Assembly (NCBI GenBank): GCA_030696525.1
Contig: JAUYSB010000187.1
Location: 290-64,289 of the forward strand
DNA: 64,000 bases
Origin: Hydrogenophaga sp.
Lineage (GTDB): Bacteria; Pseudomonadota; Gammaproteobacteria; Burkholderiales; Burkholderiaceae_C
Direction: 5' to 3'
Part shown: piece after piece, positions 1,587 to 18,011 of the stretch
Numbering within the stretch: the first letter of the stretch is position 1
How the letters are laid out: the number at the start of each line of letters is the position of its first letter
Made by a program: the position numbers and the translations under genes
Notes under the pieces: generated by a model
The model's input: only the letters and a program-made list of their open reading frames with translations
What the model was told of the DNA's origin: nothing
Database searches by the model: none

Positions 1587-2999
1587 ATGATCTGCCTCGG
1601 TGCCACCTTCGGCACCCTGGCCGCACAGCGCGACATGACTTTTTGGACCGAATTGTTGGCGCAAATCCTGCGCGAATGTCTTCGCCGAATCTGGCTGGGA
1701 TCGGTGGTGGGCGCGGTGTTTGTCTGGCTGCTGCTCACCAGCAGCGCCTGGAAAGCGGCGTCCATCGCCATGGCCCATGCCGATATGGCCGCCAGCGCCT
1801 GGGTGGCTTCCGTGGTTCGCCGGCCTCCACCCACAGAGGTCATCACGGTAGGGATCGGCACCGATGCGTACCAAACTGAATTTGGCGGCCAATCCCCTTT
1901 GGACAGGCATGTGCTGGCGCGCCACGTCCAATCCCTGCTGGCCGCTCTGCCGACCCGCACCCTGCTGGTGATCGATCTTGACGTTAGCCCATCGCTCAAC
2001 ATCCCTTCTGAGCAAGGTGATGCACTGGACCGCCTCTGGGTCGCCAACGCCGGGCGCGTTGTGCTCTCACAGCCTGTACTCAACCCTGGCAGCGCCACTT
2101 CTGAATGGCAGCGTCTGTTGGAACACCAGGGCGTGGTGTTTGGCTCGCCTGCGATAGAGCGCTCATTTGGGCTGCTTGACCCTGGACACGACTACGCCGG
2201 ATCCTTGAGCGAAGTCGCTGTTCGGCGGCTTCACGCTGAGGGGGCAAAGGGCAACCTAAAGCCACCGAAGTCCACCAATCGAAGTGCATTGACCCCGGCC
2301 CTGCTTGCCGCCCCTGTGGTGCTGCCCCTGGGCGGATTTGACCTCGACACGCTCAGCGCGCTACAACCGCGAGCGGTGGTGTTCGGCGGCATGTGGCCCG
2401 GTGCCGACATCTTCGACACACCTTTTGGGCCCAGAAATGGCGCCGTGGTGCATGCCGCCAAACTGGCAGGCTACCTGAATGCAAGGCATACCCTGCCTTC
2501 GCTGGTGCAAGTGCTGGCGGCCATCCTCGCAGCTGCCATCTGCGTGACGGTGGCGCGCCGTGCAGCGCGCCGACTTGTGCCAGCCGGTGGATTGCCAGCC
2601 AACGATCCACTGACTCAGTTCGCCCGCAGTCAACTCAGGCGCCTGTGCGTCGTAGCGGTGGTTCTGCTTTGCCTGGTGGCATTGTTGCTGGTCACCGCTT
2701 TGCTGCGCCACCTGGGCTGGGGCTTGTCCAGCCTGATGCTGCTGGGGTTTTCACTGCTGTCGGTGGTGGGCGCATGGGTCAGCGACATCACACGTGATTT
2801 GCAGGACACCCCGCCACCAGTGGCTCCGGCGATCAAGTTCAATTGGAAGGCGGAGTTTTGGGCACCCGTCCGAGCTGCTTTTTCTGCGCCCGCGCCAGGG
2901 GCACCGGCCGGCTGGCGCCGTATCTTGCTGCTGCTCGCCTTTGTCACAGGCAGGATGTTGCTCCCTCTGGGTGCCATCATCTACCTGAGCACCCATTGA
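1587..2999 (+). CDS. CHASE2-domain membrane sensor with no cytoplasmic output domain
   Basis: N-terminal TM; CHASE2-like motifs (VITVGI, SPLDR..LA, VIDLD, DIFDTPFG..NGAVVHA); several C-terminal TM helices. Start could be ATG 1635. Confidence 0.7.
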   Translation: MICLGATFGTLAAQRDMTFWTELLAQILRECLRRIWLGSVVGAVFVWLLLTSSAWKAASIAMAHADMAASAWVASVVRRPPPTEVITVGIGTDAYQTEFGGQSPLDRHVLARHVQSLLAALPTRTLLVIDLDVSPSLNIPSEQGDALDRLWVANAGRVVLSQPVLNPGSATSEWQRLLEHQGVVFGSPAIERSFGLLDPGHDYAGSLSEVAVRRLHAEGAKGNLKPPKSTNRSALTPALLAAPVVLPLGGFDLDTLSALQPRAVVFGGMWPGADIFDTPFGPRNGAVVHAAKLAGYLNARHTLPSLVQVLAAILAAAICVTVARRAARRLVPAGGLPANDPLTQFARSQLRRLCVVAVVLLCLVALLLVTALLRHLGWGLSSLMLLGFSLLSVVGAWVSDITRDLQDTPPPVAPAIKFNWKAEFWAPVRAAFSAPAPGAPAGWRRILLLLAFVTGRMLLPLGAIIYLSTH

Positions 3000-3004
3000 A
3001 AACT

Positions 3005-3796
3005 ATGCATTTCAGCTGTCCGTACCTGCAAGTGTCGCTTTCCGTCGTGCTGGCGGTGGCCCTTGGCGGCCCCGCACGGGCGTTTTGTGTGGTGACAGGC
3101 ACCAGCGACGCCCGGGTTCGATACGGCGACCGCCTGCTCGCGCCTGTGGCCTGGGTGGATCACTGTGCCGATCTGCGCCTGGTGGCGGGGCAAGCACGAG
3201 CCGTGTGGACCACCGATACCGGGCACGGTGCCTCCGGCCCTGTGCTTGCAGACAGCCCACCGGTCGGCTACCCAAGCGAAGCGCGTCGCCACAACGGATC
3301 GACTCAACGCCTTCGCCAGTGGTGGGCGTCACTCGTGGGTGAGAGGCGCAGCACACTCGACGGCGCATTGCGCTCCCAGCTGATGCTGGAGGCGCCCATG
3401 CACGTCTACGTGCCGCCAGGGTCGCTGCGCTTGGGCTTGCCGTTGGAGGCCGAGCACCATTTGAAGCTCACCACCCAGTACGGTCGCCCCGTTTGGGAAG
3501 CCCATTTCCCCACAGGCACACCCGCCGCGATTGCAAGCCAATGGCTACCGCCCGAACAAGGTCGCGTGCTGTATTGGCAGCAATCCGGTGGACCCGGACA
3601 GCGCTGGGTGTTGATGCCGCTGCCAACCGATGCATCGAAGCAAGTGGCTAACGAGCTGTCTGCCAATGGTTTGCTCGATGCGCCCACCACTGCCGAGAGC
3701 GCCTTGGCCATGGCTCTCCTGTTCGAACGCAATGGCGCGGCTTTCAACGCAATTCTGGCGCTGCGCAGCCTGCTGCCGGCCGCGGGTCAACGCTGA
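3005..3796 (+). CDS. Secreted protein, DUF928-like
   Basis: Signal peptide (VSLSVVLAVALGGPARA); GALRS motif; C-terminal ALLFERNGAAFNAILAL resembles the DUF928 C-terminus; starts 5 bp after the CHASE2 gene. Confidence 0.5.
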   Translation: MHFSCPYLQVSLSVVLAVALGGPARAFCVVTGTSDARVRYGDRLLAPVAWVDHCADLRLVAGQARAVWTTDTGHGASGPVLADSPPVGYPSEARRHNGSTQRLRQWWASLVGERRSTLDGALRSQLMLEAPMHVYVPPGSLRLGLPLEAEHHLKLTTQYGRPVWEAHFPTGTPAAIASQWLPPEQGRVLYWQQSGGPGQRWVLMPLPTDASKQVANELSANGLLDAPTTAESALAMALLFERNGAAFNAILALRSLLPAAGQR

Positions 3797-5205
3797 GGAA
3801 CGGTTGGCATGCCTTTCATCAAAGCATCCAGCAAATCCTTCCCGACCCTCTGCAAGTCTTCTTGTGATCTGCCCTGTTCCAGGCTCACTTGGGCCAGATT
3901 GAGCCGAGCGCGGGTGTAGCCCGTTTGTGCAGCGGCTTCGAACAAGCTGCGGGCTCGCGCAACATCTCTGTCTACACCCCGGCCGCCGTAATACATCTCG
4001 CCCAACTCCGTCTGCGCGATCGCAAAACCCGACGCTGCGGCGCGCTGCAGCCACCGCACAGCCATGGTGTTGTTGGCACCACTGCGTCGCACCTGGGTAC
4101 TTGGCCCGGTGGTTTTGTCCAGGCCCTGACGGTATGCCAAACCCAAGGTGGTCATGGCCAAGACATTGCCCGCCTGAGCCTTGCGCTCGATCAACGGAAC
4201 TTCGTCACGGGTAAAGTGCTTGGTGCGCTGTTGAAGCTCCCAGTCCAGTTCGTTCCACTCCTGGACGGTCAGTCGATCGAACCATTGGGGCTCACTCTGC
4301 AGAGACCGGCTGCTAGCCACCGCGACCGGTTTCCCCGAGGGCCACCCACTGGGAGCCACCTTGACCCCATGGGGTGGAACGAAGAAAAATTCTTCGTTCA
4401 CGGACGACTCAAACCATGGGATTTGATCGTCTTTGGTGGCTTTGCGCACCGTTTCGCTCACCCGCTTGAACACCACCTCCAGCGGCAGACCGGGCTGTTT
4501 CAGGGCATCTGCCAAGGTCCGGGTGTAGAGACTGTTTTCTCCACTGCCATCGGCGGCGAGTTCACCCGGCGCAGTGGAATACGCAATCAACGTGCCGCGG
4601 GGGGATTGCACGGGCGCCCAGCCCTCCACCCTCCAGTTACGGTAACGAACCGGTTTTTCTGGCTCGAACGGGTTGTTGCGGCAAGCATCCATCACTACGA
4701 TGTTCAACGCCGACTTTGACAGCGACAAGTGCTCCAACAAAGTGGACAAAGCATAGGCGTTGAGGGGAACTGACTGCTCACGGTCCATCGGTGTGTCCAC
4801 CGGCATCAGGTAGTTTTTGCCTTGCACCTGCACACCATGCCCCGCGTAGTAAACCAGTGCCACCGAGTCTTTGGGCAGTCCCAGACCAAACTTCTCTACC
4901 GCTTGACGCATGTCTTGTCTCGACATGTCGGTTTTCTGCGTGACCACAAAGCCAAGATTGCGCAGTGTCTGAGCCATCAAGGCTGCATCGCGAACTGGAT
5001 TGAGCAAATCGCGAGCGCGCCCCGAGTAATCCGCGTTACCAATCACCAGTGCGTGATATGCCTGGCTTGCAGCCGCTGGCGAAGCGATAGGCGGAGACAC
5101 GGTGGTGGCCCTCGCCGTCCCCATGACCCAAAATAGCGCAAGTTCTATCCAAAGGCACCATACCATGGATATGGGATACGGCATTTTTGCAACGTCGAAT
5201 TTCAT
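3787..5205 (-). CDS. Exported caspase-family (peptidase C14) protease with C-terminal Sel1-like repeats
   Basis: ALVIGNADY, LLNPVRDA, catalytic His in YYAGHG and Cys in MDACRN; Sel1 repeats (AQTELGEMYYGGRGVDRD); hydrophobic N-terminal signal. Confidence 0.9.
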   Translation of the reverse strand: MKFDVAKMPYPISMVWCLWIELALFWVMGTARATTVSPPIASPAAASQAYHALVIGNADYSGRARDLLNPVRDAALMAQTLRNLGFVVTQKTDMSRQDMRQAVEKFGLGLPKDSVALVYYAGHGVQVQGKNYLMPVDTPMDREQSVPLNAYALSTLLEHLSLSKSALNIVVMDACRNNPFEPEKPVRYRNWRVEGWAPVQSPRGTLIAYSTAPGELAADGSGENSLYTRTLADALKQPGLPLEVVFKRVSETVRKATKDDQIPWFESSVNEEFFFVPPHGVKVAPSGWPSGKPVAVASSRSLQSEPQWFDRLTVQEWNELDWELQQRTKHFTRDEVPLIERKAQAGNVLAMTTLGLAYRQGLDKTTGPSTQVRRSGANNTMAVRWLQRAAASGFAIAQTELGEMYYGGRGVDRDVARARSLFEAAAQTGYTRARLNLAQVSLEQGRSQEDLQRVGKDLLDALMKGMPTVPQR

Positions 5206-5223
5206 GCGAACAAACTCGCGAAG

Positions 5224-5910
5224 TTGAATTCAGTATATTGCTTGTCCAACATCGCGAATCCAACGTTCGCTCTTCACACAACCACTACCCCTTCACCCCA
5301 CGTGAAGTCTATCGACCCCACCCCCGACGAGCTGCGCAACTTGCTTCAGCGGGTGGCCCGACGGGATGCTGCGGCGTTTGAGTCCATCGTCAAACGCTAT
5401 AACGGCCGATTGACGCGATACGCGTCATTCAAGCTGAACGATCCGCACGAAATCAACGACGTAATCAATGACACCCTGCTGGCCGTATGGGACAACCCCA
5501 CCGCGTACCAGTCTCAATCGGGCTTTTTCACCTATCTGATCAGCATCATGAACCGCAAAGTCGTCGACAAGTACCGGCAGAAAGGCCGGCAGATTGAGAC
5601 CTGGGTCGACGAATCCGGCGAATGGATGGACGACACCCCAAGCGGTGATGCGGAGACGGGACACGGAGACCCCGCTTTTTGGCTCCATCAATCGCAAGCC
5701 ATCCAACGCTTTGCAGATTGCAAAGACAAGCTTTCGCTCGAGCAGCAAGCAGTGTTGTTTTGGCTGTTTGAGATGGAAGCCACCGAAACCGAAGCGGCCG
5801 CACATTGCCAATGCCCCGTGGGCACAGTCAAATCACGCTATGCCGCAGCGCGCAACGCCATCAAGCGTTGTCTGATGGGCTGGCACCGACAAACAACAAG
5901 CCATGGCTGA
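5224..5910 (+). CDS. ECF-type RNA polymerase sigma factor
   Basis: Region 2 (DAAAFESIV...DVINDTLLAVW...FFTYLISI) and region 4 (CPVGTVKSR). True start may be GTG 5302. Confidence 0.9.
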   Translation: MNSVYCLSNIANPTFALHTTTTPSPHVKSIDPTPDELRNLLQRVARRDAAAFESIVKRYNGRLTRYASFKLNDPHEINDVINDTLLAVWDNPTAYQSQSGFFTYLISIMNRKVVDKYRQKGRQIETWVDESGEWMDDTPSGDAETGHGDPAFWLHQSQAIQRFADCKDKLSLEQQAVLFWLFEMEATETEAAAHCQCPVGTVKSRYAAARNAIKRCLMGWHRQTTSHG

Positions 5911-6559
5911 AATCCACACCGCCCAGCGCTTCGCGGATCAGCTGCCCTACCTGCTGAATGGAACGCTGGACGACAACGATGCGGCGTGGATGACCGATTA
6001 CCTGCAGAACCACCCCGAGGCCCAACAAGAATGGGCGTTGGCGGTGTCACTACGTCAAGCCAGCCTGGTCACCGAAGACCCCAGTGCCAACGAACTCCGG
6101 TGGCGAAGCCTGCGCCCCCACCTGGCCAACGTTGAAATGGCACCGGCAGCCCGAGCACTGTGGCAACGATTATGGAACTGGCGGTTACCTGCACCCGCCA
6201 TCGTCAGCGTGTGCCTTGCTGTGGCTATCGGCATGCTGTGGTGGCCCACCGTAGAAGCGCCTTCGCACCCCGAAAGTCGTGCACTTGAAGGGACTCCAGC
6301 CTCCATCGCCACCCCATGCCAACAGCAATGGCGTGCCCGCGTGGTCTTTGGGGAGCAGGTGTCTGTGCAGGAGGCCGCAATCCAAATACGGGCCGCTGGC
6401 GCAAGCCGGATCAGCCTGCCCACGCCATTGGGCGAATGGTGGCTGTATTGGGCCACGGAAGAGGGCAAGCGTTTGGGACTGCAGTCGCTTCAGAAGGGAC
6501 AAATGACAGAGTCCCTGCTCGCGCCGGGCACCGAAACCGACATCGGCTGTATTCGTTGA
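5903..6559 (+). CDS. Membrane-anchored anti-sigma factor
   Basis: Overlaps the sigma stop; N-terminal anti-sigma-like DQLPYLLNGTL (zinc ligands degenerate); single TM; C-terminal extracytoplasmic domain (RVVF...PTPLGEW). Confidence 0.8.
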   Translation: MAEIHTAQRFADQLPYLLNGTLDDNDAAWMTDYLQNHPEAQQEWALAVSLRQASLVTEDPSANELRWRSLRPHLANVEMAPAARALWQRLWNWRLPAPAIVSVCLAVAIGMLWWPTVEAPSHPESRALEGTPASIATPCQQQWRARVVFGEQVSVQEAAIQIRAAGASRISLPTPLGEWWLYWATEEGKRLGLQSLQKGQMTESLLAPGTETDIGCIR

Positions 6560-6579
6560 GATTGAGAAGGAACACTTTG

Positions 6580-7626
6580 ATGAACAGACCAAAATACCAT
6601 GCCCAAGCTGGAGTGCACCAATCCGTTGCATTTTGCCTATGGGTCGCCATCCTGTTTTTTGTCACTGTAAGCGGAGCGCAGGCAGAGTCCAAGGCGACAA
6701 CAAACCACGGGCGAAACGACTACACATCCCGGTTCACGAATGGTCTTGCTTTCCATCTCTCGCAACCCCTTGAAATAAAGGAAGGCAATCTTTGCAAACA
6801 AACAACGCAAAGATACCGGCAACAGTCGATGAGCATCAGCGTGACGGGATACCGAACCTGGGAGCCCGATTGCACAACGATAGAAGGAAAAATGACTGTC
6901 GTTGACAAGAACTTCAAAGAAGTACTACCGCCCGTGTGCGAGACCACATGGAACAACTTGACTGAACAAGCGAACAGCGCAGGCACCTACCAATTGGTGG
7001 CCTGCCGGTCAAACAAGCTATGGGGCGTCTTGAATCTCAAACAAGAATGGTTGTTTCCAGCAGAATACTCGAGCATCTCGTTCACGAGCGAACCAACGTA
7101 CGACTCAAAAACCTGGGAAGAGAATACGATCAATAGCTATCGCACTGGAAAACCCAAAAACAAGATCGGTACCGCTCGAAAAGCGCTCAGCGAGAATTAC
7201 TTCTTCAAAACTATGGTCGTTAACGACATTATTTTGTCGAATGGCACACTCACATTGGTGCCGCATGCCAAATACATCGAACCACAGTTCAATAACCCCT
7301 ACGCTTATCCTGTGATTGTGGCAACCAATTATCTTTTTAACGGCATAAGCAATATTGACCCGGACAACATCTGGGCGCCATTGATCGGAAAATATCCTTT
7401 TCATTTAATCGGCTTGATTGCCGGCATCAGCATCGCCGTGCTGGCTCGCTTCTATTTCAAAAGCAAGGGCTGGAACACGTTACAAATCGCGCTCGCAGCC
7501 CCCGCCACAGGCATCGTGGGTGGTGCCGCCACAGGGCTGGCAGCCTACGTGCTGTTTTGGGCAGCAGTGGCACTTTTCGCCGTGGCCATCGCAGGTGCAG
7601 TAATGACGGCGCTGGCGCGCAGATAA
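6580..7626 (+). CDS. Exported/membrane protein with a WG-repeat-like motif
   Basis: GAGAAGGA RBS before ATG 6580; signal/TM; KLWGVLNLKQEWLFPAEY is WG-repeat-like; C-terminal TM helices. Confidence 0.6.
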   Translation: MNRPKYHAQAGVHQSVAFCLWVAILFFVTVSGAQAESKATTNHGRNDYTSRFTNGLAFHLSQPLEIKEGNLCKQTTQRYRQQSMSISVTGYRTWEPDCTTIEGKMTVVDKNFKEVLPPVCETTWNNLTEQANSAGTYQLVACRSNKLWGVLNLKQEWLFPAEYSSISFTSEPTYDSKTWEENTINSYRTGKPKNKIGTARKALSENYFFKTMVVNDIILSNGTLTLVPHAKYIEPQFNNPYAYPVIVATNYLFNGISNIDPDNIWAPLIGKYPFHLIGLIAGISIAVLARFYFKSKGWNTLQIALAAPATGIVGGAATGLAAYVLFWAAVALFAVAIAGAVMTALARR

Positions 7627-7744
7627 GCTGGCTCCTCACTGTCAAAGAACATCCAGCAACGATCAGGCAAACACCCCTACAGCGACAAAAATCTCGCCGA
7701 ACTGCATATCGACCCACCCCAGTCAAAAAAACGAGCCAACGCTG

Positions 7745-8203
7745 ATGTCTGCACAAGAAACAATCACCAAGGATGGTGTTCGAACCACAAGGAATGGATC
7801 AATGTGCGCCTACTTACGCAGAGCAATTACGTTGTCCGTTCGATTTGCAACCAAAGACACCATCGTCCAGACACTGGAAGGCCCGGTGTCATGCGTGGAA
7901 GGCGATGCCATCGTGACAGGAATCAGAGGCGAAAATTGGCCAATCCAGCGCCCTCGCTTTCTTGCAACCTATCAACCCGCTACAGCCGATATGTCAATGG
8001 GCAGCGACGGCTTGTACCAGAGAATATCTTTTTCTGTCCAAGCACGCCAACTGGAAAAAGATGAGTCTTTGCCGTTGGGAGGTGGCCGTGGCACCTTGGC
8101 CGGAAGCCGTGGCGATTGGCTGGTTCAGGATGCAGAGGGAGATTGCTGGATTGTTGCAAATGGTATTTTTCAGGAAACTTACGAGCCACACAAAAACAAC
8201 TGA
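7745..8203 (+). CDS. PGDYG-domain protein
   Basis: TLEGPVSCVEGDAIVTGIRGENWPIQRPRFLATY plus a second internal copy GDWLVQDAEGDCWIVANGIFQETY. Confidence 0.75.
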   Translation: MSAQETITKDGVRTTRNGSMCAYLRRAITLSVRFATKDTIVQTLEGPVSCVEGDAIVTGIRGENWPIQRPRFLATYQPATADMSMGSDGLYQRISFSVQARQLEKDESLPLGGGRGTLAGSRGDWLVQDAEGDCWIVANGIFQETYEPHKNN

Positions 8204-8227
8204 CAACACCATTCCGAGAGATGCAGA

Positions 8228-10279
8228 ATGCAGTTTCTTCGTAAATACAGCACCCAGCTCCTTATTCTGTCGGCACTGTTGACCCTTGCAAGCGGCTCAT
8301 TGGGTTATTGGCTCAACCGCGGCAATGACACCGCAAACCGCAGTGTGGTGTTAGACGGACTCAATGCGTTCCTCAGCGCCTTCGGGCACTTGGCCTTGGG
8401 TGGTTTTGACAAACCCGGACCAGATAACGGTGAGTTCAACCACGCTCAACTGTCTCTTTTAATCAGCAGGCTGGCTGGCTTGGCTTTCGTATTTTTTGGG
8501 GCGGAAAGACTGCTCCGCACGCTCAGTGCGAACTACGCACATTTACTTTTTAGTTTACGAATCTTAGGCTCGCAGCCATTGTATGTGGTCATAGGCATGG
8601 GCTGGTATGGCCGCACATTTATCGCCAATTTTGACCAATCAGAACAGGCCAACGCAAACCCCAAGATGGGCGCTACGAGGGCAAGAGCAACACCGAAAAA
8701 TACTCTGTTTATCGACGTTGCACCATCTGATACGGCGATCCAAGAATGTGAGCAAAAAAAAATAATTTGGAGACAAGCGACGGGAACATCATCCAAGTTT
8801 CTGTCTTCGATCCCGTGGCATCGTGTGAAAAAGCTCTTTGTCGTCACAGGGTCAGATCTGGAAAATTCCCACGTTGTGCGGATGGTCAATGAGCAAATAA
8901 ATAAAGAGCATCCATGGACTGGGCGCCAAAAGGATGACCCTTTACGTTGTGTGGTACCCGTTGAATCACCGGTGGCTTTTGAAGCCATGATTTCAGGCAG
9001 CCGATCAACAACATCATCCATCGAGCTTTGTACTTTTAACATTTACAACACCACAGCGCGGATGCTGTTGGAAAACCAAGTCGCGGCACGAACTTTTAAA
9101 CAGAACATTCATTCTCGTCTGGTGCTTATCGGACAAGGAAATATGGCAAAAGCCTTGCTAGAGCAGTGGCTGGTAACACAGATTTTTGAGTTCAAAGTCA
9201 ACTCTTGCATTGACGTGGTACATCCAGATCCAGATTCTGCGATCTTCGAATTTTGTGAGAGCTATCCTTGCTATACCCACAACCCCTGCGATGAGCCTTC
9301 ATCGAAAAACACGCTACGCACTGCCTCTCCTGACTCAGTCTGGGTCACAGAGAAAATCTTGCCAATTGTGAAATTTCACAAACTGCCAAGTGCGATCAGT
9401 GGTCCGATAGAGTGGGCAGAATCACATCTTTCAAAAGAAGACCAATTTTCAAGATGTACAACCATGGCGGTTGTTTTTGACGATTTGGCAACAAGCATAC
9501 AAGTTGCAAAAACCCTGCGGACAGCCATTCAAAGACAATACCCCCTTCGCGAAGAAGGCGCTGGCCTTTTGTGGTGGGTCTACCTCAACACTCAAGAGGC
9601 TGCACTCAGTAAGAGCCTGCGCGACCACTTGGACTTGCGAAATCCGGGTGAAGGACTCGATGTCGGATTCCAAGATTTTCTTGGAAAGTGTTCGATTGAC
9701 AGCATCTCTGACGACCACATTGAACGCGCAGGCATGGCTGTCCACCGTGTTTACAACCGTGAGCCGCAATTGACTCCTGAGACCTTGTGGTTCTCGGGCG
9801 ACTTGGTAGCCGAAAATCCAATTTCTCCACCGAGCCCTTGGGACAAAGAGTCCAGTCGACTCTGTGGCTTGCACACCTGGGTGAAAGAAAGCATCATCGA
9901 AAGGCTGAGTTCGAACGACCAAGGCCACAAGAACAAGCAAAAAAAGGTGGCAGGCACAATCATTAGAGAACTGGCCAAAATCGAGCACCGGCGCTGGTGC
10001 GCCGTTCACTTGTTGCGTGGCTGGCGCCCGCTTCTGCCACTTGAGAATGGTGCCATCCCAGACTCAGCATACGCTGTCGTACGTGAGTGGTACACGCCCG
10101 CTGGTAAGCGGTCCTATCGTTCTCAATACAAGCATCTTTGTTTGATGCCCTATGAATCGCTAAAAGGTTTGAACCGGGTTATTGAGGGAAAGGGCTCTGC
10201 AGAGCAGCGCAAGGACAGAAGAATTGTTCTTTCGACACGTCGGATCATTGCCTATGCAGAGGGTCCGGGCATCAGCTAA
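8228..10279 (+). CDS. Putative ligand-gated channel: 2TM + two RCK/TrkA-N-like Rossmann domains + C-terminal RyR (ryanodine-receptor repeat) domain
   Basis: TM-helix-TM N-terminus; VVIGMGWYG (GxGxxG); LVLIGQGNMA; RyR signature LAKIEHRRW...GW...KHLCLMPYESL...KDR. Confidence 0.75.
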   Translation: MQFLRKYSTQLLILSALLTLASGSLGYWLNRGNDTANRSVVLDGLNAFLSAFGHLALGGFDKPGPDNGEFNHAQLSLLISRLAGLAFVFFGAERLLRTLSANYAHLLFSLRILGSQPLYVVIGMGWYGRTFIANFDQSEQANANPKMGATRARATPKNTLFIDVAPSDTAIQECEQKKIIWRQATGTSSKFLSSIPWHRVKKLFVVTGSDLENSHVVRMVNEQINKEHPWTGRQKDDPLRCVVPVESPVAFEAMISGSRSTTSSIELCTFNIYNTTARMLLENQVAARTFKQNIHSRLVLIGQGNMAKALLEQWLVTQIFEFKVNSCIDVVHPDPDSAIFEFCESYPCYTHNPCDEPSSKNTLRTASPDSVWVTEKILPIVKFHKLPSAISGPIEWAESHLSKEDQFSRCTTMAVVFDDLATSIQVAKTLRTAIQRQYPLREEGAGLLWWVYLNTQEAALSKSLRDHLDLRNPGEGLDVGFQDFLGKCSIDSISDDHIERAGMAVHRVYNREPQLTPETLWFSGDLVAENPISPPSPWDKESSRLCGLHTWVKESIIERLSSNDQGHKNKQKKVAGTIIRELAKIEHRRWCAVHLLRGWRPLLPLENGAIPDSAYAVVREWYTPAGKRSYRSQYKHLCLMPYESLKGLNRVIEGKGSAEQRKDRRIVLSTRRIIAYAEGPGIS

Positions 10280-10305
10280 CCACCCTATTTTTAGACGTCT
10301 AGAAA

Positions 10306-11880
10306 ATGAAAAAGTCTGTATTCATATCCCATGCAAGCAAGAATTTCAAGCTCGCCGATTCATTTCGAGCATGGCTGGAAGAGAAGGGCGTTTCATGCTG
10401 GATTGCCCCGCGTGACATTCCGAAAGGCGGCCAATACGGCGCATCCATCGTCGACGCGATCAAAGACTGCTCTGTTTTTTTATTGATCTTGACCAAGGAG
10501 TCAAACATCTCGGCAGCTGTGGCAAACGAGGTTGAGCGCGCATTTTCATACCAAAAAACGATTGTTCCAGTTCGGGTTGATGATATTCGTCCCCAGAAGG
10601 AAATAGAGTTTTTCGTTTCCAACGCGCAGTGGATGGATGCTATTCATACACCATTGAAAAGTCGAACCGATGAAATTGCGCAGATTGTTCATGCCATCGA
10701 AATGGGGGCTGCGGCACCTAAACCCAAAGAAGAGGTTGTGACCGCATGGTCCCGCGTTGATCGTTGGCTTGAGTCGGCATTCCGCCACAAGGCGCTTACT
10801 TTTGCTGTTATATTTTTGCTATTGATGACTGCGTCATTTGCTGCATTATATGTACAAGCTGATTCGGCAAAAAATATCGCCACCATCAAAGATGGCGTGT
10901 CCAGCATCGAGGTCAAAACTGATTCTATCGACACCACCGTCAAGGATTTGCACCGAATGGAGAAGGATGCGGAGGCAGAATACAAAAAGCAAATGGAACA
11001 GATCGAATTGCTGCCCAACCGTGTGGGTGGTGTCAACATCGATTCAACTCAAAATATCGGCAATGACATTTTGTTGCTGCGTGTTTCGGCAGCACCCGAG
11101 CCTCCCAGAAACTGGAAGGGGGTGAGTGTGACACTGAAATCCGGATCAACTCAGCATTTCATTGATTTGACACAGGAGTTTTCCGCCAAAAACGAACCAA
11201 CGAGGCGGGAAGTTGCTGTTCACATCAAAGGCAAACCAACCGATCTGATGGTTTGTTTTAGGCTTTTCGACACTCACAGAAATCGAGAGATTATTTTGAC
11301 CCGCAGCTTTCAGGTAACACACGGCTCCAGCAGCCAAGGTGCTCAGTTGCAAGCCGCCAACGAGTTGGCTGTCATTGAAACTGCAAAATTTTCCGAAATT
11401 TGTGGCGATGCGGAGAAATTTCCCAACCGCGCCCATCAATTGACTGGCGAAGAGGCGCCACACCTGTTCTTTTCAACCTATTTGATCATCCCCCCAGAAA
11501 AGTTCAGCAATAGTTCAAAATGGATTTATGCCTTAAAAAATGGTGCCTTTCACCCAACAATTGCACAAGCTCTGAGTGAACGCAAGCTCACCATGCGACT
11601 TACTGCGTACAACGGTAATAAAAAGCGGTTGTCTGCCAATATTGCCGACGATATCGAGCAGTCTGGTGGTGCGTTCAGACTACGTACCGATGTCATGGGT
11701 GAGCTTGTCCTTTTTTGCATGGCCGGGCCAAATATTGTGGATGTAACCAAAAAGTCCTACTTTATCCAGCCATTTAATTTCAGGACTGAGAACAACGGCA
11801 AGGTTTGGAAGGCGATTGAAACCACCAAAACAGAAGCGAAGTTTGTTTCAGAAGCTGAGTTTTCGGAAATGTGCATGTGA
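10306..11880 (+). CDS. TIR-domain protein with one TM and an extracytoplasmic C-terminal region
   Basis: VFISHAS...CWIAPRDIPKG...VANEVERA (TIR_2 with putative catalytic Glu); TM ALTFAVIFLLLMTASFAALYV. Confidence 0.88.
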   Translation: MKKSVFISHASKNFKLADSFRAWLEEKGVSCWIAPRDIPKGGQYGASIVDAIKDCSVFLLILTKESNISAAVANEVERAFSYQKTIVPVRVDDIRPQKEIEFFVSNAQWMDAIHTPLKSRTDEIAQIVHAIEMGAAAPKPKEEVVTAWSRVDRWLESAFRHKALTFAVIFLLLMTASFAALYVQADSAKNIATIKDGVSSIEVKTDSIDTTVKDLHRMEKDAEAEYKKQMEQIELLPNRVGGVNIDSTQNIGNDILLLRVSAAPEPPRNWKGVSVTLKSGSTQHFIDLTQEFSAKNEPTRREVAVHIKGKPTDLMVCFRLFDTHRNREIILTRSFQVTHGSSSQGAQLQAANELAVIETAKFSEICGDAEKFPNRAHQLTGEEAPHLFFSTYLIIPPEKFSNSSKWIYALKNGAFHPTIAQALSERKLTMRLTAYNGNKKRLSANIADDIEQSGGAFRLRTDVMGELVLFCMAGPNIVDVTKKSYFIQPFNFRTENNGKVWKAIETTKTEAKFVSEAEFSEMCM

Positions 11881-11943
11881 TTTTTGATTCGTTCATCGTG
11901 AACATATTTTCATGCGATCAAGTTCAAGCACCTAAGTTTTTGA

Positions 11944-13107
11944 ATGAATACAACTGCAACGCGTCCATTCAGTACCGAGCAATACCGAGCACCACAGCCA
12001 CAAAAGCGCCTACTAGCCATCGATGGCGGCGGCATGCGGGGCATGTTTGCGCTCAAGGTGCTGGGCAGGATCGAACAACTGCTGCGCGAGAAGCACCAGA
12101 ATGATCAGCTGGTGCTGAGCGAGTTTTTTGACTACGTGGCGGGCACCAGTACAGGCGGCATCATCGCCACTGGCATTTCACTTGGCCTGTCGATCCAGGA
12201 GTTGGAAGCCTTTTATCAGTTTCAAGCGCCATTGATGTTTCGCAAGACGAGCAACATCGTGAAGCGCATTTTTTACTCCAAATACGACTACGAGCCCCTG
12301 ACTGCCAAAATCAAGGAGATCGTAGGCGCCAAGACAGAGTTAGGTGACTCCAGGCTCAAGACATTGTTAATGTTGGTGCTGATGAATGCCAGCACCGCTT
12401 CACCGTGGCCTGTGTCCAGCAACCCGCGGGCTATGTACAACGACACCGCATTGGGTGAGCATTCCAATTTGAAGTTGCCCTTGTGGCAACTGGTGCGGGC
12501 CACCACCGCAGCGCCTTACTTTTTTGAACCCGAGATCATCAATATCGGAGATAAGCGTTTTGTCTTTTACGACGGCGCCCTCACCTCGCTGAACAACCCC
12601 GCCTTCAAGCTTTTGCAGATGGCCACTTCGCCCGCCTACCGCTTGGGCTGGCCCACGGGCAAGGAAAACATCCTTCTGGTGTCCGTGGGCACCGGGCTGG
12701 TGCCGCGCGAAGTTAAGCACATCCGACTACGTGACAAACAGTTTGGCAGCTTGCTGCTGAACTCGATGGAAGCGCTGATGTATTCAGCATCGACCGAAAC
12801 CGATCTGCTGTGCCGCTCTGTATCGCATGTGGTGGCCGGCGAACCGGTGGACAGCGAGGTGGGCGATTTCATTGCCACCCCCGCCATCGGCAACACACCG
12901 CTGTGCACCTATGCCCGCTTCAATGCGGTGCTCAATCCCCGCGGGCTTGCGCGTTACGGTTGTGAAGACTTGCTCAAGCGGACCCAATTTGCGCTGGACG
13001 ACACCGCGTCGATCGAAGCCTGCGCCATGCTGGGCACGGCGGTGGCCCAAGCTCAAGTACAGCCCGCCTTGTTTAATGGGTTCGGATTGCGCCCCCCAGC
13101 CAGTTGA
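11944..13107 (+). CDS. Patatin-like phospholipase
   Basis: IDGGGMRG oxyanion loop, GTSTG nucleophile, TAAPYFF, catalytic DGA. Confidence 0.92.
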   Translation: MNTTATRPFSTEQYRAPQPQKRLLAIDGGGMRGMFALKVLGRIEQLLREKHQNDQLVLSEFFDYVAGTSTGGIIATGISLGLSIQELEAFYQFQAPLMFRKTSNIVKRIFYSKYDYEPLTAKIKEIVGAKTELGDSRLKTLLMLVLMNASTASPWPVSSNPRAMYNDTALGEHSNLKLPLWQLVRATTAAPYFFEPEIINIGDKRFVFYDGALTSLNNPAFKLLQMATSPAYRLGWPTGKENILLVSVGTGLVPREVKHIRLRDKQFGSLLLNSMEALMYSASTETDLLCRSVSHVVAGEPVDSEVGDFIATPAIGNTPLCTYARFNAVLNPRGLARYGCEDLLKRTQFALDDTASIEACAMLGTAVAQAQVQPALFNGFGLRPPAS

Positions 13108-13174
13108 ATCGCAACGCTGTGCTTTCGAGCCACCTTGGAACGCAGTCGTTTGGCCTCTCGCCTTCACCAAAACC

Positions 13175-16100
13175 ATGAAAATCTTTTTCAGTTACCCGCA
13201 CGACGACAACTCTGAGCTGGTCAAGCGGCTCAAGGTGGATCTGAAAAACCGCGGGCACGAAGTCTGGTTTGATGCAGAGAAGATCAAGGAGGGCGACGAG
13301 TGGCGCGCTCGCATCACCCAAGGGATCCTTGACAGCCAGCAAGTTGTCGCTTTCCTGTCCAAACACTCGGTCCGCGATCCGGGTGTCTGCCTGAATGAAA
13401 TCGCCATTGCGCTGGCCGACAAGGGCGAGGCGATGGTCACCGTGCTGGTCGAACCCGAACATGAGGTCCAGGCCCCGGTCTCCATCACCCACATCCAGTG
13501 GTTGCGCATGGAGCAGTGGGAACAAAAGCTCCTGGAGGACGATGGCTGGTACCGCAGTCAGCTCGACAAGCTCGTTCAAGCCATTGAGAACCCCAGCAAT
13601 GCGGGGCGGCACGAGGAGTTGGAAACCTTGCGCCTGGCGCTCGACCCCATGAGCTTCTATGCCGAGATGGCGCCACACATTCCCAACTTTACCGGGCGAC
13701 AGTGGATCATCGACCGCTACCGGAATTGGTTGGCCGAAGACGCCAAAAGCCGGGTGCTGCGCATTGAGGGCGGCCCCGGCTTGGGCAAGACCGCCGTCGC
13801 CAGCTATCTGGCTCACAGCACCAAGAGCAGCGTGCTGGCCGCGCACCTTTGTCAGTACAACAAGGGCGAGAGCCGCAACCCCTTGCGCTTTGTGCGCACC
13901 CTGGCCTACCAACTGGCCACGCGGTTGCCCGACTACCGGGTCCGACTGCTCAAAACGGTGGCCATTCAGCGGCCCGAGACCATGCAGGGCAAAGATGCTG
14001 CCTCGTTGTGGAGCGACCTCATCAGCAGCCCGCTGGCAGGCAGCGGCGACAGGGGCGTGATCGATCGTCAGCGCTTGGCCATCATCGTGGACGGACTGGA
14101 CGAAGCCACCGTCGATGGCAAGAACCCCATCGTTGAACTGCTGGCCAGCGAAATCAACCAACTTCCCAAGTGGATAGGCGTGGTCCTGACCGGCCGGCCC
14201 GATCCGGAACTCACCCAGCGCCTGGCGCGCTTTCAGCCGCTGGTGCTGCGTGACGATGATCCTGCCAACCTTGCCGACCTCAAGGACTACTGCGATAAGT
14301 GGCTCGCTGACGAAGTCAAGAGTGACAGGCTCACCCAGGCCCAGGCCACCGCTGCCAGCCAGACCCTGCTCAAGGACAGCCGTGGTGCGTTCCTGTACCT
14401 TCGCCACGCACGCATTGCCGTGGCGGAAGGCATGCTCGACCTGACGAAGCCCGACAGCTTCCCCTCGGGCCTGACCGGGATCTACCAGCGCTTCTTTGAG
14501 CGCCGCTTCCCCGATGCGTGGGACGATACTGGGACCTACAAACACAAGGTGCGCCCGTTTCTGGCGTTGGTGCTCGCAAGCCCGGAGCCCTTGCCACTGC
14601 CCTTGGCCGCCCGCATCCTGCAATGGGGCGAGTACGACGCCAGCAGCCTGCTGCGCAGCTTGGGCAGCCTCGTCAAACATACCAAGGGCAGTAGAGGCAC
14701 TCCGGAAAGCGAGGACGAAGAATTCGTGGCGCCATTTCACTACAGCGTGCGCGAATGGCTGCGAAACCCAGACGCCGCAGGAGATTTCTACGTGGGCATC
14801 CAAAGCGCCAGATTTAAGCTCACCGCGGCGGTGTGGCAACGCTACCTGGAGAGTGGTGAACAAGACGCGTATGCCTGGGCGGTGTTGCCCGATTTGCTGG
14901 CGTCACTGACGCAGGCCGACCAAGACCACTTGTTTGGCGAGCCCCGCTGGGATACGAGCCAAGTGCTTTATCGGCTCGCCAAGAGCCAGGCGCCCAAAAT
15001 GCGGCTCAAAGACGCGGAATTGGCTTGGAAAACGCAAATCAGGCAGAGCGAGCGGCTGGCGGCCGCTGCGCCGGAAAACACCGAATACCTGCGTGATCTG
15101 GCATTCAGTCACACCATGCTGGGTGACATTGTGGTGTTGTTCGGCAATCCAGAGAGAGCGAGACAACACTTTCGCGATGGACTTGCGATCGCAGATCGGT
15201 TGACGGCCGCCTCTCCAGAAAACGCAGACTTTGCACGCGTTCACGCCATCGTCTATGAGCGACTGGGTGACACGGAAATGACACTGGGTCAAGTGCGCGG
15301 GGCGCAGGCTTACTACCAGCGTTCACTAGAGATGCATGAGCGCGAGTACGCACTGTCACCGGAAAATGCCACAGACTCGCCCGACCTGTGCATAAGCTAT
15401 CTCAAGTTGGGCGACAGTGAGGTTAGGCTCGGCCACCCTGATAACGCACAAGCGTACTTTCTGCGAGGGCTTGCTGTAGCAGAACGACTGACTGCCACGT
15501 CATCTGACAATAAAGAGTTCCTGCGCCCACATGCGCTCGCTTACGAGCGGTTGGGTGATACGGAAATGACGCTGGGGAACCTGGACAAGGCGCAGGCGAA
15601 TTACCGGCTTTCACTTGACCTACGCCAGCGTCTCTACGTTTTGGAACCGAAGAACGCCGATTTCTCGCGCGACCTGTGCGTAGCCTATCTCAAGTTGGTC
15701 GACAGTGAAATCAGGCTCGGCCAACCACACACGGCACAAGAGTACTTTCTCAGAATGCTTGAAATCGCGGAGCGGTTGTCCGCAGCCTCTGCAGAAAGCA
15801 CATTGTTTTTGCGCGACCATTCAGTTGCTTACGAGCGGTTGGGTGATGTGGAAATGATGCTTGGAGACCTGCATCAGGCGAAAGCACATTACCAATGTTC
15901 ACTCGAGATACATGAACGGCTGTACGCTTTAGCACAGGCGAACGCCGAGTTCACACGCGACCTCGTCGTGTGCCACATCAAGCTGGGCGACGTTGACATC
16001 AGGCTCGCTCAACCAGAGCAGGCAAAAGCCCACTTTTTACAAGGACTTGTGATTGCAGAGCGACTGGTCACGGCGTCCCCGGAGAACACACTCTTTCTTG

Positions 16101-17332
16101 GCGATCTGAAGACAGTCCACAACAGGTTGGGTGACTTTGAAGCGGGGCAAGGGCAGCCGCAAGGTGCAGTGGTGCATTACCAAGATGCTCTGTCAATTGC
16201 GGAGACACTGGCAACCAATGCGCCAGAAAATCTTGAGTACGTGCGTGATCTGTGGTTCTGTCACGACCGCATTGGGAGTACATTGTTGCGCTTGGATGAA
16301 CCTACCCGAACTCATGGGCACTTCGTTCAAGGGCTGGCTCAACTTGAGAAACTTGTTGCGGCTGCACCTCAAAATCAGATATACGCCCGCGATCTGGAGG
16401 TCGCCCTCAATAAGTTGGGCGATTTTGAAGTTGGGCAAGGGCAACCGCAGCAGGCACTGGCACATTACCGAGATGCTCTGCCGATCGCAGAGGGTCTGAC
16501 AACAGCTGCGCCAGAAAGTCTTGAGTACGTGCGTGATCTGTGGTTCTGCCACGACCGCATTGGGAGTACATTGTTGGGCTTGGGTGAAGCTACCAGAGCT
16601 CATGAGCACTTCGCTCAAGGACTGAGTCAACTTGAAAAAATTGTTGCGGCTGCACCGCACAATCAGAACCATGCCCGTAATCTAAAGCTCGCCCTTAACA
16701 AATTGGGGGACTTTGAACTTGGGCGAGGGAAACCTCAGCAGGCGCTGGCGTATTACCGAGAAGCTCTGGCGATTGCGGAGAGCCTGGCAGCAGTTGCGCC
16801 TGAAAACCTTGAATTCTCGCTTGATCTGTCTCTCAGCTACTTCAAGCTGTTCGAGATTGAAGATGCGGAGGGGCAAATCCAACAGGCGCTTGATTACCAT
16901 TGGAAGAGTTTGGCGATATCTGAGCAGCTTGTTGCCGCCTCGCCCAACAACACTCAGTTTGCCAGCCTACTGTGTTCCGTTTACCTCAGATCAGGCCTCA
17001 TCGAGGAAGCGCTGGGGCAACCACAAAAGGCACAGACATATTACCTCAAGGCTCTCTCGATCACAGAAAGGCTGATCGCCATTGCGCCCGAAAGTACCCA
17101 GATCACACATTCAATTTCCTTCATTTATTTCCAGTTGGGCTCTACCGAGGAGGCGCTGGGTCAACCACAAGAGGCGCGCGCACATTACCTCAAGGGGCTG
17201 GCCATCACCGAGCGGCTGACCAAAGCCGAACCTGAAAATACCAACTTTCAACAGTTTTTGAAAGATTTTCAGACGAGCATTAGATCTTTGGATAGGCACT
17301 ATGCATCCCACCGACATTGTCAAAGCTCATAA
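13175..17332 (+). CDS. TIR-NACHT(STAND)-TPR NLR-like protein
   Basis: Start at MKIFFSYPHDD; TIR with CLNEI; Walker A GGPGLGKT; Walker B IIVDGLDE; FHYSVREWL; C-terminal 48-aa helical repeats. Confidence 0.9.
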   Translation: MKIFFSYPHDDNSELVKRLKVDLKNRGHEVWFDAEKIKEGDEWRARITQGILDSQQVVAFLSKHSVRDPGVCLNEIAIALADKGEAMVTVLVEPEHEVQAPVSITHIQWLRMEQWEQKLLEDDGWYRSQLDKLVQAIENPSNAGRHEELETLRLALDPMSFYAEMAPHIPNFTGRQWIIDRYRNWLAEDAKSRVLRIEGGPGLGKTAVASYLAHSTKSSVLAAHLCQYNKGESRNPLRFVRTLAYQLATRLPDYRVRLLKTVAIQRPETMQGKDAASLWSDLISSPLAGSGDRGVIDRQRLAIIVDGLDEATVDGKNPIVELLASEINQLPKWIGVVLTGRPDPELTQRLARFQPLVLRDDDPANLADLKDYCDKWLADEVKSDRLTQAQATAASQTLLKDSRGAFLYLRHARIAVAEGMLDLTKPDSFPSGLTGIYQRFFERRFPDAWDDTGTYKHKVRPFLALVLASPEPLPLPLAARILQWGEYDASSLLRSLGSLVKHTKGSRGTPESEDEEFVAPFHYSVREWLRNPDAAGDFYVGIQSARFKLTAAVWQRYLESGEQDAYAWAVLPDLLASLTQADQDHLFGEPRWDTSQVLYRLAKSQAPKMRLKDAELAWKTQIRQSERLAAAAPENTEYLRDLAFSHTMLGDIVVLFGNPERARQHFRDGLAIADRLTAASPENADFARVHAIVYERLGDTEMTLGQVRGAQAYYQRSLEMHEREYALSPENATDSPDLCISYLKLGDSEVRLGHPDNAQAYFLRGLAVAERLTATSSDNKEFLRPHALAYERLGDTEMTLGNLDKAQANYRLSLDLRQRLYVLEPKNADFSRDLCVAYLKLVDSEIRLGQPHTAQEYFLRMLEIAERLSAASAESTLFLRDHSVAYERLGDVEMMLGDLHQAKAHYQCSLEIHERLYALAQANAEFTRDLVVCHIKLGDVDIRLAQPEQAKAHFLQGLVIAERLVTASPENTLFLGDLKTVHNRLGDFEAGQGQPQGAVVHYQDALSIAETLATNAPENLEYVRDLWFCHDRIGSTLLRLDEPTRTHGHFVQGLAQLEKLVAAAPQNQIYARDLEVALNKLGDFEVGQGQPQQALAHYRDALPIAEGLTTAAPESLEYVRDLWFCHDRIGSTLLGLGEATRAHEHFAQGLSQLEKIVAAAPHNQNHARNLKLALNKLGDFELGRGKPQQALAYYREALAIAESLAAVAPENLEFSLDLSLSYFKLFEIEDAEGQIQQALDYHWKSLAISEQLVAASPNNTQFASLLCSVYLRSGLIEEALGQPQKAQTYYLKALSITERLIAIAPESTQITHSISFIYFQLGSTEEALGQPQEARAHYLKGLAITERLTKAEPENTNFQQFLKDFQTSIRSLDRHYASHRHCQSS
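15071..17230 (+). repeat. 15 tandem 144-bp (48-aa) TPR-like coding repeats
   Basis: Units start PEN/PQN at an exact 144-bp period from 15071 to 17231; near-identical DNA at 16232 and 16520 (288 bp apart). Confidence 0.9.
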
Positions 17333-17417
17333 GTGTTTCACGAAAAACATAGAGTGTATGCATCGCGCTACTCCGGCGATATGCAGCATTTTAAAGCAGC
17401 CCAAAGGGAAAATATTT

Positions 17418-18011
17418 ATGCTTAAGCGCTCAATATCGGTTTTTATTTTCGGGATATTTTGTATTTTCGGCTCGATAGCCGCGCAAGACCTCGTTGTGCC
17501 GGCGAATCTTCAAGGCAACTACCAAGGCAAGCTGTTTTTGATGGAGGGCTTGAAGCATTGGGAACCAAGAGGTAACAATGTTACTTTTTACACTTATCTC
17601 AAGGTAGATGTTGATGCAGATGGTCGCATTGACGGCGCCGTGACTTACCGCTGCGGAGTGAATGGCTCAGAGATCCACTGCCCCGAATCGCTCGTACTGA
17701 ATACAATTGAAGGCTGCACTGTGAGCGGGCAGATTCAGACACGAAAAGCCGAGGGGGAAAATATTTACTTTCAAGGTACGGGCAGCTTGGCCGGCTGCGC
17801 GGATGCGCGTGCAAACTTTTCGAATGGTATGGTCCGCGGCTACATCAAGGGTGTAAGAGATGCCTCCGTTTTGACACTGGCCTTCTCTTCGAAAAAATTC
17901 GATCCGACGCAGCCTGGCAATCGAGTGGTGATTCAGTCAGTTGAAATTTGGAAAAGTTTGAATGGGCAGCCACGCCAGGCAGGCAATCATTGGAGCTCAA
18001 ATCCGCGCTAA
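17418..18011 (+). CDS. Secreted hypothetical protein
   Basis: Signal peptide MLKRSISVFIFGIFCIFGSIAA; four Cys in the mature part; co-oriented after the NLR gene. Confidence 0.6.
   Translation: MLKRSISVFIFGIFCIFGSIAAQDLVVPANLQGNYQGKLFLMEGLKHWEPRGNNVTFYTYLKVDVDADGRIDGAVTYRCGVNGSEIHCPESLVLNTIEGCTVSGQIQTRKAEGENIYFQGTGSLAGCADARANFSNGMVRGYIKGVRDASVLTLAFSSKKFDPTQPGNRVVIQSVEIWKSLNGQPRQAGNHWSSNPR

Follow-up and report, generated by a model that had tools for sequence, protein, structure and literature searches.

What would a bacterial cell do with a predicted membrane channel that ends in a ryanodine receptor (RyR) domain and is encoded next to two TIR proteins? The question is raised by a locus at positions 7745 to 17332 of a 64-kb stretch of Hydrogenophaga sp. 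DNA (contig JAUYSB010000187.1; hereafter, the window), where five genes encode, in this order, a PGDYG protein, the channel, a membrane-anchored TIR protein, a patatin phospholipase and a TIR-NACHT-TPR protein. The reading we favour, which in our judgment stands about evenly balanced between right and wrong, is that the locus is a Thoeris-like alarm circuit in which a messenger made by the TIR domains would be read by the RyR pocket of the channel, while the patatin would provide a second output and PGDYG would set a threshold. The locus is useful because the makers of a signal and its candidate receivers sit together in it, whereas several of its relatives lack a TIR. The features are as follows.

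7745..8203, + strand: PGDYG protein (PF14083), 152 aa, 57 bits in Pfam, two tandem phage-type units of ~62 aa
8228..10279, + strand: predicted RCK/RyR channel, 683 aa, assigned from homologues, an AlphaFold2 model and a family profile
9695..10276, + strand: RyR Repeat12-like domain at the C-terminus of the channel, assigned from profile comparison and pocket residues
10306..11880, + strand: membrane TIR protein, 524 aa, with TIR_2 (Pfam), one transmembrane helix and a beta-rich outer region
11944..13107, + strand: patatin phospholipase, 387 aa, Pfam Patatin, S69/D210
13175..17332, + strand: TIR-NACHT/NPHP3_N-TPR protein, 1385 aa, with TIR_2, NPHP3_N/NACHT and TPRs (Pfam), starting with the ATG at 13175

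The coordinates of the open reading frames (ORFs) bear out the original prediction of five co-oriented genes with gaps of 24, 26, 63 and 67 nt, and the catalytic motifs that it listed are complete, namely, E75 in both TIRs, the patatin motifs DGGGMRG, GTSTG (with S69) and DGA (with D210), and Walker A (GGPGLGKT, 199-206) and Walker B (IIVDGLDE, 303-310) of the TIR-NACHT-TPR protein. The island in which it placed the genes shows in their composition as well: the GC content of the five genes is 0.47-0.57, compared to 0.657 genome-wide, and only 0.8% of the 2-kb windows of the genome are at or below 0.51. Contigs from two other studies bridge all four gene junctions, one by one, and the likely source run covers 2000-18000 at a depth of ~8-11; the gene arrangement gives no sign of being an artefact of assembly. 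A lack of cover over the TPR region in one run was given no weight.

The predicted channel and its RyR pocket

A Pfam scan of gene 2 itself gave no match, and neither Pfam nor the PDB yielded a sequence match for the window channel alone. The RCK and RyR labels originally given to this gene are nevertheless upheld by its homologues, by a structure model and by comparison of the family profile with RyR structures. We found 114 homologues, and among the 44 that were scanned, TrkA_N is present in 39 and RyR in five. The AlphaFold2 model, built from 27 sequences (pLDDT 84), consists of a first transmembrane helix (TM1, 8-30), a pore helix (40-55) followed by the filter GHLALGGFD, a second transmembrane helix (TM2, 72-112), two RCK/Rossmann domains (GMGWYG at 123, D163) and a helical tail. 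Its top structural matches are the RCK-gated GsuK, MthK and Slo1 (Foldseek E 1e-6 to GsuK). With these channels and with CASTOR it would share a two-helix pore with a pore helix and tandem RCK domains, but it differs from them in the absence of the TxGYG filter, the additional RyR domain, an identity of ~12% and the immune-type neighbours. The filter is non-canonical across the family as well, TxG[YF]G being found anywhere in just 7 of the 114 homologues, and because the K+ signature is missing, the channel is probably not K+-selective. The GxGxxG motif and acidic residue of RCK1 are kept in 91 of 98 aligned homologues, and the solved structure of GsuK, the best structural match, contains ADP and NAD; the RCK1 Rossmann site may serve additionally to sense NAD or ADP. 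A fold search of the channel against viral structures returned nothing at E<=0.001, and word-indexed searches recovered two homologues each for the channel and PGDYG.

The tail of the channel brings the TIR signal into the picture. The profile of the channel-tail family matches 6uhi (E 2e-20), the bacterial structure 3nrt (E 9e-10) and Repeat12 of human RyR3 (9l90, E 1e-8), and in hhalign the tail aligns with the phage protein RyR Tad with a probability of 96.9. RyR Tad binds 1''-3' glycocyclic ADP-ribose at 43 nM via H129, W132, K147, H154, K170 and D171 (10.64898/2026.06.04.730250), and five of these six residues are identical in the window channel (H587=H129, W590=W132, H636=H154, K662=K170 and D663=D171). 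Among phmmer homologues, which were selected independently of the pocket motif, conservation ranges from 86 to 100% per residue (H 110/111, W 112/112, H 99/112, K 95/110, D 104/109). In a second phage protein, RyDEP, the residues H75, W78, H100 and D117 bind 2'/3' cyclic ADP-ribose (cADPR) and cleave it through an H/D dyad, and six of eight RyDEP homologues bind these molecules (PMC13232231); the RyDEP residues were aligned to the window by motif spacing alone, without the RyDEP sequence. RyR domain and pocket residues are common to the window channel, RyR Tad (five of six) and RyDEP, but the phage proteins, as described in these preprints, are small soluble sponges or hydrolases, whereas the RyR domain of the window is the tail of a predicted host membrane channel and, unlike theirs, contains both repeat halves in one chain.

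Phage RyR domains, then, bind or cleave TIR-made cADPR isomers, and the parts of the two 2026 preprints available here name no host receptor with a RyR domain (10.64898/2026.06.04.730250, PMC13232231). The RyR channel family is an obvious candidate for that receptor. If the channel is gated in this way, a bacterial protein of 683 residues would open the long-standing question of a direct action of cADPR on the RyR Repeat12 site to binding assays, electrophysiology and structure determination.

In the circuit that we favour, a trigger, probably a phage, would activate both the cytoplasmic TIR-NACHT-TPR sensor and the membrane-anchored TIR, and the activated TIRs would turn NAD+ into a messenger of the cyclic ADP-ribose type. 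The messenger would bind the RyR pocket of the RCK channel and open the pore, and the ion leak would lead to arrest or death of the infected cell. The patatin is a probable second membrane-damaging output, activated by the messenger or by the ion flux through the channel, and PGDYG, by binding the messenger, would set a threshold against accidental firing. Of the original prediction, which had such a circuit encoded by all five genes as a unit, the signalling part is strengthened by a RyR domain that keeps the residues binding TIR-made cADPR isomers in phage proteins, whereas the conservation of the unit is not supported.

On the sensor side, the TIR-NACHT-TPR protein, with a TPR array spaced at 48 aa, is likely an NLR-like sensor. 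In the membrane TIR protein, the TIR domain is followed by a single transmembrane helix (161-186) and a beta-rich region of no known family, which is probably periplasmic; we infer the N-in orientation because the TIR needs NAD+, the charge bias being slight (4 vs 3). For this outer domain, we found no homologue in any locus, no match in the Atlas and no internal repeat, which counts against a conserved five-gene unit, and between related strains it contains diverged blocks while the TIR part still aligns.

Partners of the channel across genomes

To what extent do these partners keep company elsewhere? The set of loci comprises 42 with the channel or its RyR part, and domains of the TIR_2, DUF4062 or CAP12 type were taken as TIR-like. 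Such a domain lies within ~5 kb at 20 of the 42 loci and at 13 of the 26 that are at least 6 kb long. Fifteen of the 20 assignments come from Pfam and five solely from our own hidden Markov models seeded with the Pfam-called ones; three further loci, with a STING-domain gene whose N-terminus is TIR-like by eye, were left uncounted. In ten channel genomes (37.6 Mb), 11 of the 21 TIR_2 matches fall at the channel locus, and the remaining ten give a background of ~0.27 per Mb, or ~0.3% per 10-kb span; from these genomes, only the background is usable because they were picked for TIR-like neighbours. In the window genome, the two operon TIRs are the only TIR matches.

The channel occurs with a TIR-like STAND protein at eight loci (L014, L016, L022, L024, L027, L036, L045 and L058), and it is fused to partners within single proteins, to TIR-STING in P0034 and to DUF4062-STAND-TPR in P0037. 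L045 combines the channel, a TIR-NPHP3_N-TPR protein and PGDYG in a different order, and at L024 the order is DUF4062-ATPase, PGDYG, channel. Longer channel homologues carry an N-terminal SLOG-type domain, the genes beside channel homologues include STING, SLOG-SLATT, STAND and caspase, and several loci with channel, patatin and SLOG have no TIR. The patatin subfamily, at E<=1e-30, is present in only five genomes of a blind set of 400 from the phylum, directly beside the channel in three of these and beside a lone RyR gene in one; in the fifth, it is part of a cluster that includes two TIR genes. L021 is a further case of this patatin with RyR.

The components are rare close to home. None of 36 genus genomes yielded PGDYG and two of 399 class genomes did; the N-terminal half of the NLR-like protein was absent from all 130 genus genomes searched for it, and the full-length channel turned up in two of 400 genomes from the order, a denominator that includes one unpublished genome (G329). 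The channel search of the order genomes gave matches in 290 of 401, mostly to the TM-RCK1 part only, which we treated as ordinary RCK proteins, and the full profile was covered in just two other order genomes. No channel homologue was detected among the plasmids searched.

The expectation that the five genes form a single conserved unit is thus not supported: the complete set was seen only in close relatives. In one related strain the contig departs from the window sequence near the end of the patatin, with 338 nt left without a match. Because no distant locus has all five genes, the locus is best seen as part of a modular family, in which the RyR channel is the conserved element and its partners change, rather than as a set of five that is fixed. 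What does recur together across genomes is the combination of TIR sensors, RyR/Rossmann pore and patatin that had been predicted, albeit not all five jointly.

Several of these loci deserve description in their own right. At L045 (G123:C199), two RyR channels lie within 6 kb among four TIR-like fusion genes (TIR-WD40, TIR-NACHT-TPR, ROK and FGE-sulfatase), along with ATP-grasp and phosphotransferase genes. At L020, L028, L030, L037, L014 and L044, SLOG-fused or long RyR channels adjoin genes of the TIR-STING or NDT-like-STING type, and no cyclase was seen among the neighbours scanned; P0034 unites SLOG, channel, RyR, TIR and STING in one polypeptide. L061:8541-11063 encodes an 840-aa nucleotidyltransferase of the RelA/SpoT type with a C-terminal RyR domain, possibly a signal-regulated alarmone synthetase. 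In two order genomes, a GNAT acetyltransferase gene lies directly 5' of the RyR channel or its PGDYG gene (L045:17100-17666, L047:11795-12385). The closest patatin (44%) belongs to a cluster at L067:607-10212 with genes for a ThsB-like TIR, TIR-TGT, PfkB, TPR-S and pentapeptide proteins, which adjoins a type IV secretion region.

PGDYG and its phage relatives

The PGDYG protein presents a further facet of the locus: it consists of two tandem copies of a unit that in phages forms a protein by itself and that PHROGs 419, 1810 and 4502 match. The phage-unit profile matches PGDYG residues 23-78 (E 2.9e-13) and 110-148 (E 2e-7), and the best 80 of 159 viral matches represent 51 distinct ORFs, 39 of which are 59-67 aa long. 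In one of the 51 (L111:901-1341), the unit is fused to a Tad2 domain, and a Latilactobacillus phage protein (WCZ55007.1; OQ240260.1 13702-14250) likewise consists of a single PGDYG-type unit and Tad2; a Dorea phage protein, WAX12350.1, was dropped as a third such fusion, with a unit profile E of 0.56. Sequestin was discovered through its fusion to known sponges (10.1101/2025.07.12.664507). The two phage fusions with the Tad2 sponge make PGDYG a candidate signal binder, and the phage unit family a candidate new sponge family.

The company kept by PGDYG in bacteria points partly in the same direction. It adjoins the channel at L023, L024, L025 and L047 and is one gene away at L045, and within a TIR operon of Caballeronia it comes after a DUF4231 (SLATT-type) gene. 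In the Atlas, a PGDYG-like fold (TM-score 0.74) is found in a 113-member cluster that is 55% RyR, and also in DHH phosphoesterases. Single-sequence AlphaFold2 modelling of PGDYG gave a poor model (pLDDT 35.5), and a co-fold with the channel (score 0.00) speaks neither for nor against contact between the two. PGDYG also matches 134 Ralstonia records and is widespread on Ralstonia chromids. The role of buffer, which the original prediction offered for PGDYG beside that of signal carrier, thus gains independent hints, from the Tad2 fusions and the RyR-rich fold cluster, along with contexts that are TIR-free or housekeeping in character; that it binds the signal is, in our view, a tentative proposition, somewhat less probable than its opposite.

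The comparison with established sponges has its limits. The phage unit that makes up PGDYG resembles Tad2 (PF11195) and Acb4 (PF13876) in its small size and wide distribution, and in the fusions it is linked to Tad2 (10.1101/2025.07.12.664507, PMC11722364), but the PGDYG sequence matches neither family. Assignment of PGDYG to either was rejected, since these are separate Pfam families and there was no PDB match, and a relationship to the N-terminal domain of RyR Tad found no support. PGDYG as a whole word, PF14083 and phrog 419 each retrieved no paper, and the substring matches were plant papers, judged unrelated from the listing. The proposed link would give both an uncharacterised Pfam family and a very common phage family their first functional hypothesis.

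Pressed to its fullest extent, the argument would make the channel a cADPR-gated bacterial channel that shares the pocket of animal RyRs and is fed by an NLR and a Toll-like membrane TIR, with PGDYG as a single-chain sponge of the host and its ~62-aa phage relatives as anti-TIR sponges. As a whole, this stronger version appears rather unlikely.

Alternatives, known systems and genomic setting

Several observations weigh against the circuit and have to be set beside the evidence above. RyR Tad K147 is not kept in the window channel. Moreover, animal RyRs keep these pocket residues and bind ATP and drugs (PMC13232231), and because of this the residues point to a nucleotide pocket but not to a particular nucleotide; they are the general signature of the RyR family and do not fix the ligand. 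In the blind set, where nine matches included seven channels, a TIR-like neighbour was scored for one of the seven, with one more by eye; two of the seven had a STAND or WD40 gene cut by the end of the contig or stretch, and L059, L062 and L063 have no TIR-like neighbour in 18-20 kb. Three of the four patatin-RyR genomes belong to one family, so that, with L021 and the window included, there are about four separate cases. As for PGDYG, no TIR was found in the one Ralstonia region read or at L065 and L066, and five of six longer PGDYG forms are fusions to housekeeping enzymes. Within the locus, composition steps between genes 1-3 (GC 0.47-0.51, third-position GC (GC3) 0.49-0.52) and genes 4-5 (0.57 and 0.67-0.71), the flanking genes for an extracytoplasmic function (ECF) sigma factor and a CHASE2 protein fit signalling and defence equally well, and none of the Thoeris, Avs and CBASS (cyclic oligonucleotide-based antiphage signalling system) profiles exceeded its cut-off in PADLOC and NCBIfam scans.

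Among the alternatives, the one that survives best, while still unlikely, is that of a composite island, in which the TIR-NACHT-TPR protein is a self-sufficient NADase of the Avs/bNACHT type, beside which two separate cassettes accumulated, one comprising PGDYG, the channel and the membrane TIR, the other the patatin. TIR-STAND proteins acting on their own are established, the GC/GC3 step runs between genes 1-3 and genes 4-5, the related-strain contig diverges near the end of the patatin, and nowhere at a distance do all five genes occur together. The Thoeris survey sets the TIRs of TIR-STAND proteins aside as NAD-depleting effectors (10.64898/2025.12.03.692087). Against separate cassettes, however, the channel recurs with a TIR-like STAND at the eight loci listed above and is fused to one in P0037, and the recurrence of channel and patatin crosses the GC step.

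Quite unlikely is an inverted or guard logic, whereby the RyR pocket would destroy or hold the TIR product, and the channel would open when NAD+ or a constant decoy signal drops, for example, through the action of a phage sponge. H587 and D663 match the catalytic H75 and D117 of RyDEP, which cleaves 2'/3'cADPR, but, although highly conserved, the other RyDEP homologues that were assayed showed no cleavage (PMC13232231). Likewise, the conserved RCK1 motif, the GsuK structure with ADP and NAD, and the channel-patatin-SLOG loci without a TIR would suit a guard, whereas the sensor-type TIR fusions suggest that the signal is produced upon triggering rather than constantly. Similarly improbable is non-immune signalling, in which the membrane TIR would respond to a stimulus from the envelope or the environment and the messenger would tune ion flux and lipid turnover together with the ECF sigma factor and CHASE2: the ECF/anti-sigma and CHASE2 genes 5' of the operon, the outward-facing domain of no known family, the frequency of PGDYG on Ralstonia chromids, TIR-free in the single region read, and a scan of nine genes in which no known defence system was detected speak for it, but the locus is rare, patchy and low in GC, homologues lie next to STING, SLOG-SLATT, STAND and caspase genes, and the outer domain diverges between strains more than the TIR.

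How does the Thoeris-like circuit, then, relate to systems already described? Thoeris types I-XI resemble the locus in that a TIR enzyme is encoded next to a membrane effector that would be expected to respond to a signal derived from NAD. Type X, a TIR with the ion-channel effector ThsK, has been validated, with no signal identified there, and phospholipases are among the 29 putative Thoeris effector types (10.64898/2025.12.03.692087). Unlike in Thoeris, one TIR of the window is fused to a NACHT-TPR sensor and the other to a transmembrane/outer domain, and two candidate effectors and PGDYG accompany them. The TIRs have the catalytic glutamate expected of Thoeris (E75 in both), but they score weakly with ThsB-type profiles (PADLOC ThsB E 1e-4 and 7.5e-3; NCBIfam ThcB4 16.7 and 24.5 bits against a cut-off of 220), and the layout is not that of a small TIR with a single effector. 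The locus likely resembles Thoeris in its working yet falls outside ThsB-type membership. RyR, TrkA, patatin and PGDYG do not appear in the main text of the survey (10.64898/2025.12.03.692087), whose Figure 1C or Table S1 may include the window channel.

The TIR-NACHT-TPR protein has the TIR-STAND-TPR layout and intact Walker motifs of Avs/bNACHT proteins, but it matched no named Avs/bNACHT profile in PADLOC or NCBIfam and sits in an operon with candidate signal receivers. The patatin shares its fold and catalytic motifs with CapV of CBASS, but its match to the CBASS lipase NF041079 (E 1e-33, 116.7 bits) is below the cut-off of 200 and no CD-NTase is encoded among the flanking ORFs, hence this is not CBASS. 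A probable CBASS locus, with the only SMODS match and a second patatin, lies elsewhere in the window genome (C128, ~21.7-26.6 kb).

The 2015 survey of SLOG/SLATT/TIR systems by Burroughs et al. may already list parts of these neighbourhoods. The original prediction did not recognise the combination as a named system, and we too found no published description in the literature searched, most of it outside subscription. Queries for RyR with TIR, SLOG, RCK, patatin or Thoeris retrieved as relevant only the two phage RyR preprints (10.64898/2026.06.04.730250, PMC13232231). DS-2, considered as a match, does not apply, being a CBASS variant (PMC13092281); PMC13243611, PMC13581612 and PMC7016017 were consulted as well.

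Two sets of genes border the operon directly.

5224..7626, + strand: ECF sigma factor, anti-sigma-like gene and 348-aa membrane protein with a weak WG repeat (start 6580)
17418..18011, + strand: ORF with a hydrophobic N-terminus, GC 0.50, no family

The former belong to the same low-GC stretch as the five genes and end 118 nt before PGDYG; the sigma factor block could drive the operon. The latter could belong to the unit as its sixth gene. No tRNA was found within the window and no integrase among 21 ORFs scanned at 632-30942, and the right flank, compared in search of the insertion site, is not collinear in five genus genomes. Before the island lie genes for a Lon-like AAA+ ATPase without a protease domain (632-1540), the CHASE2-like membrane protein (1587-2999) and, on the minus strand, a caspase-Sel1 protein (3787-5205), all covered by relatives in other sequencing runs; a caspase gene adjoins the channel at L057 too. 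Outside the island, 22134-27707 encodes a 1857-aa protein with a weak kinase-like stretch, an AAA_16 ATPase, a weak GGDEF match and an EAL domain.

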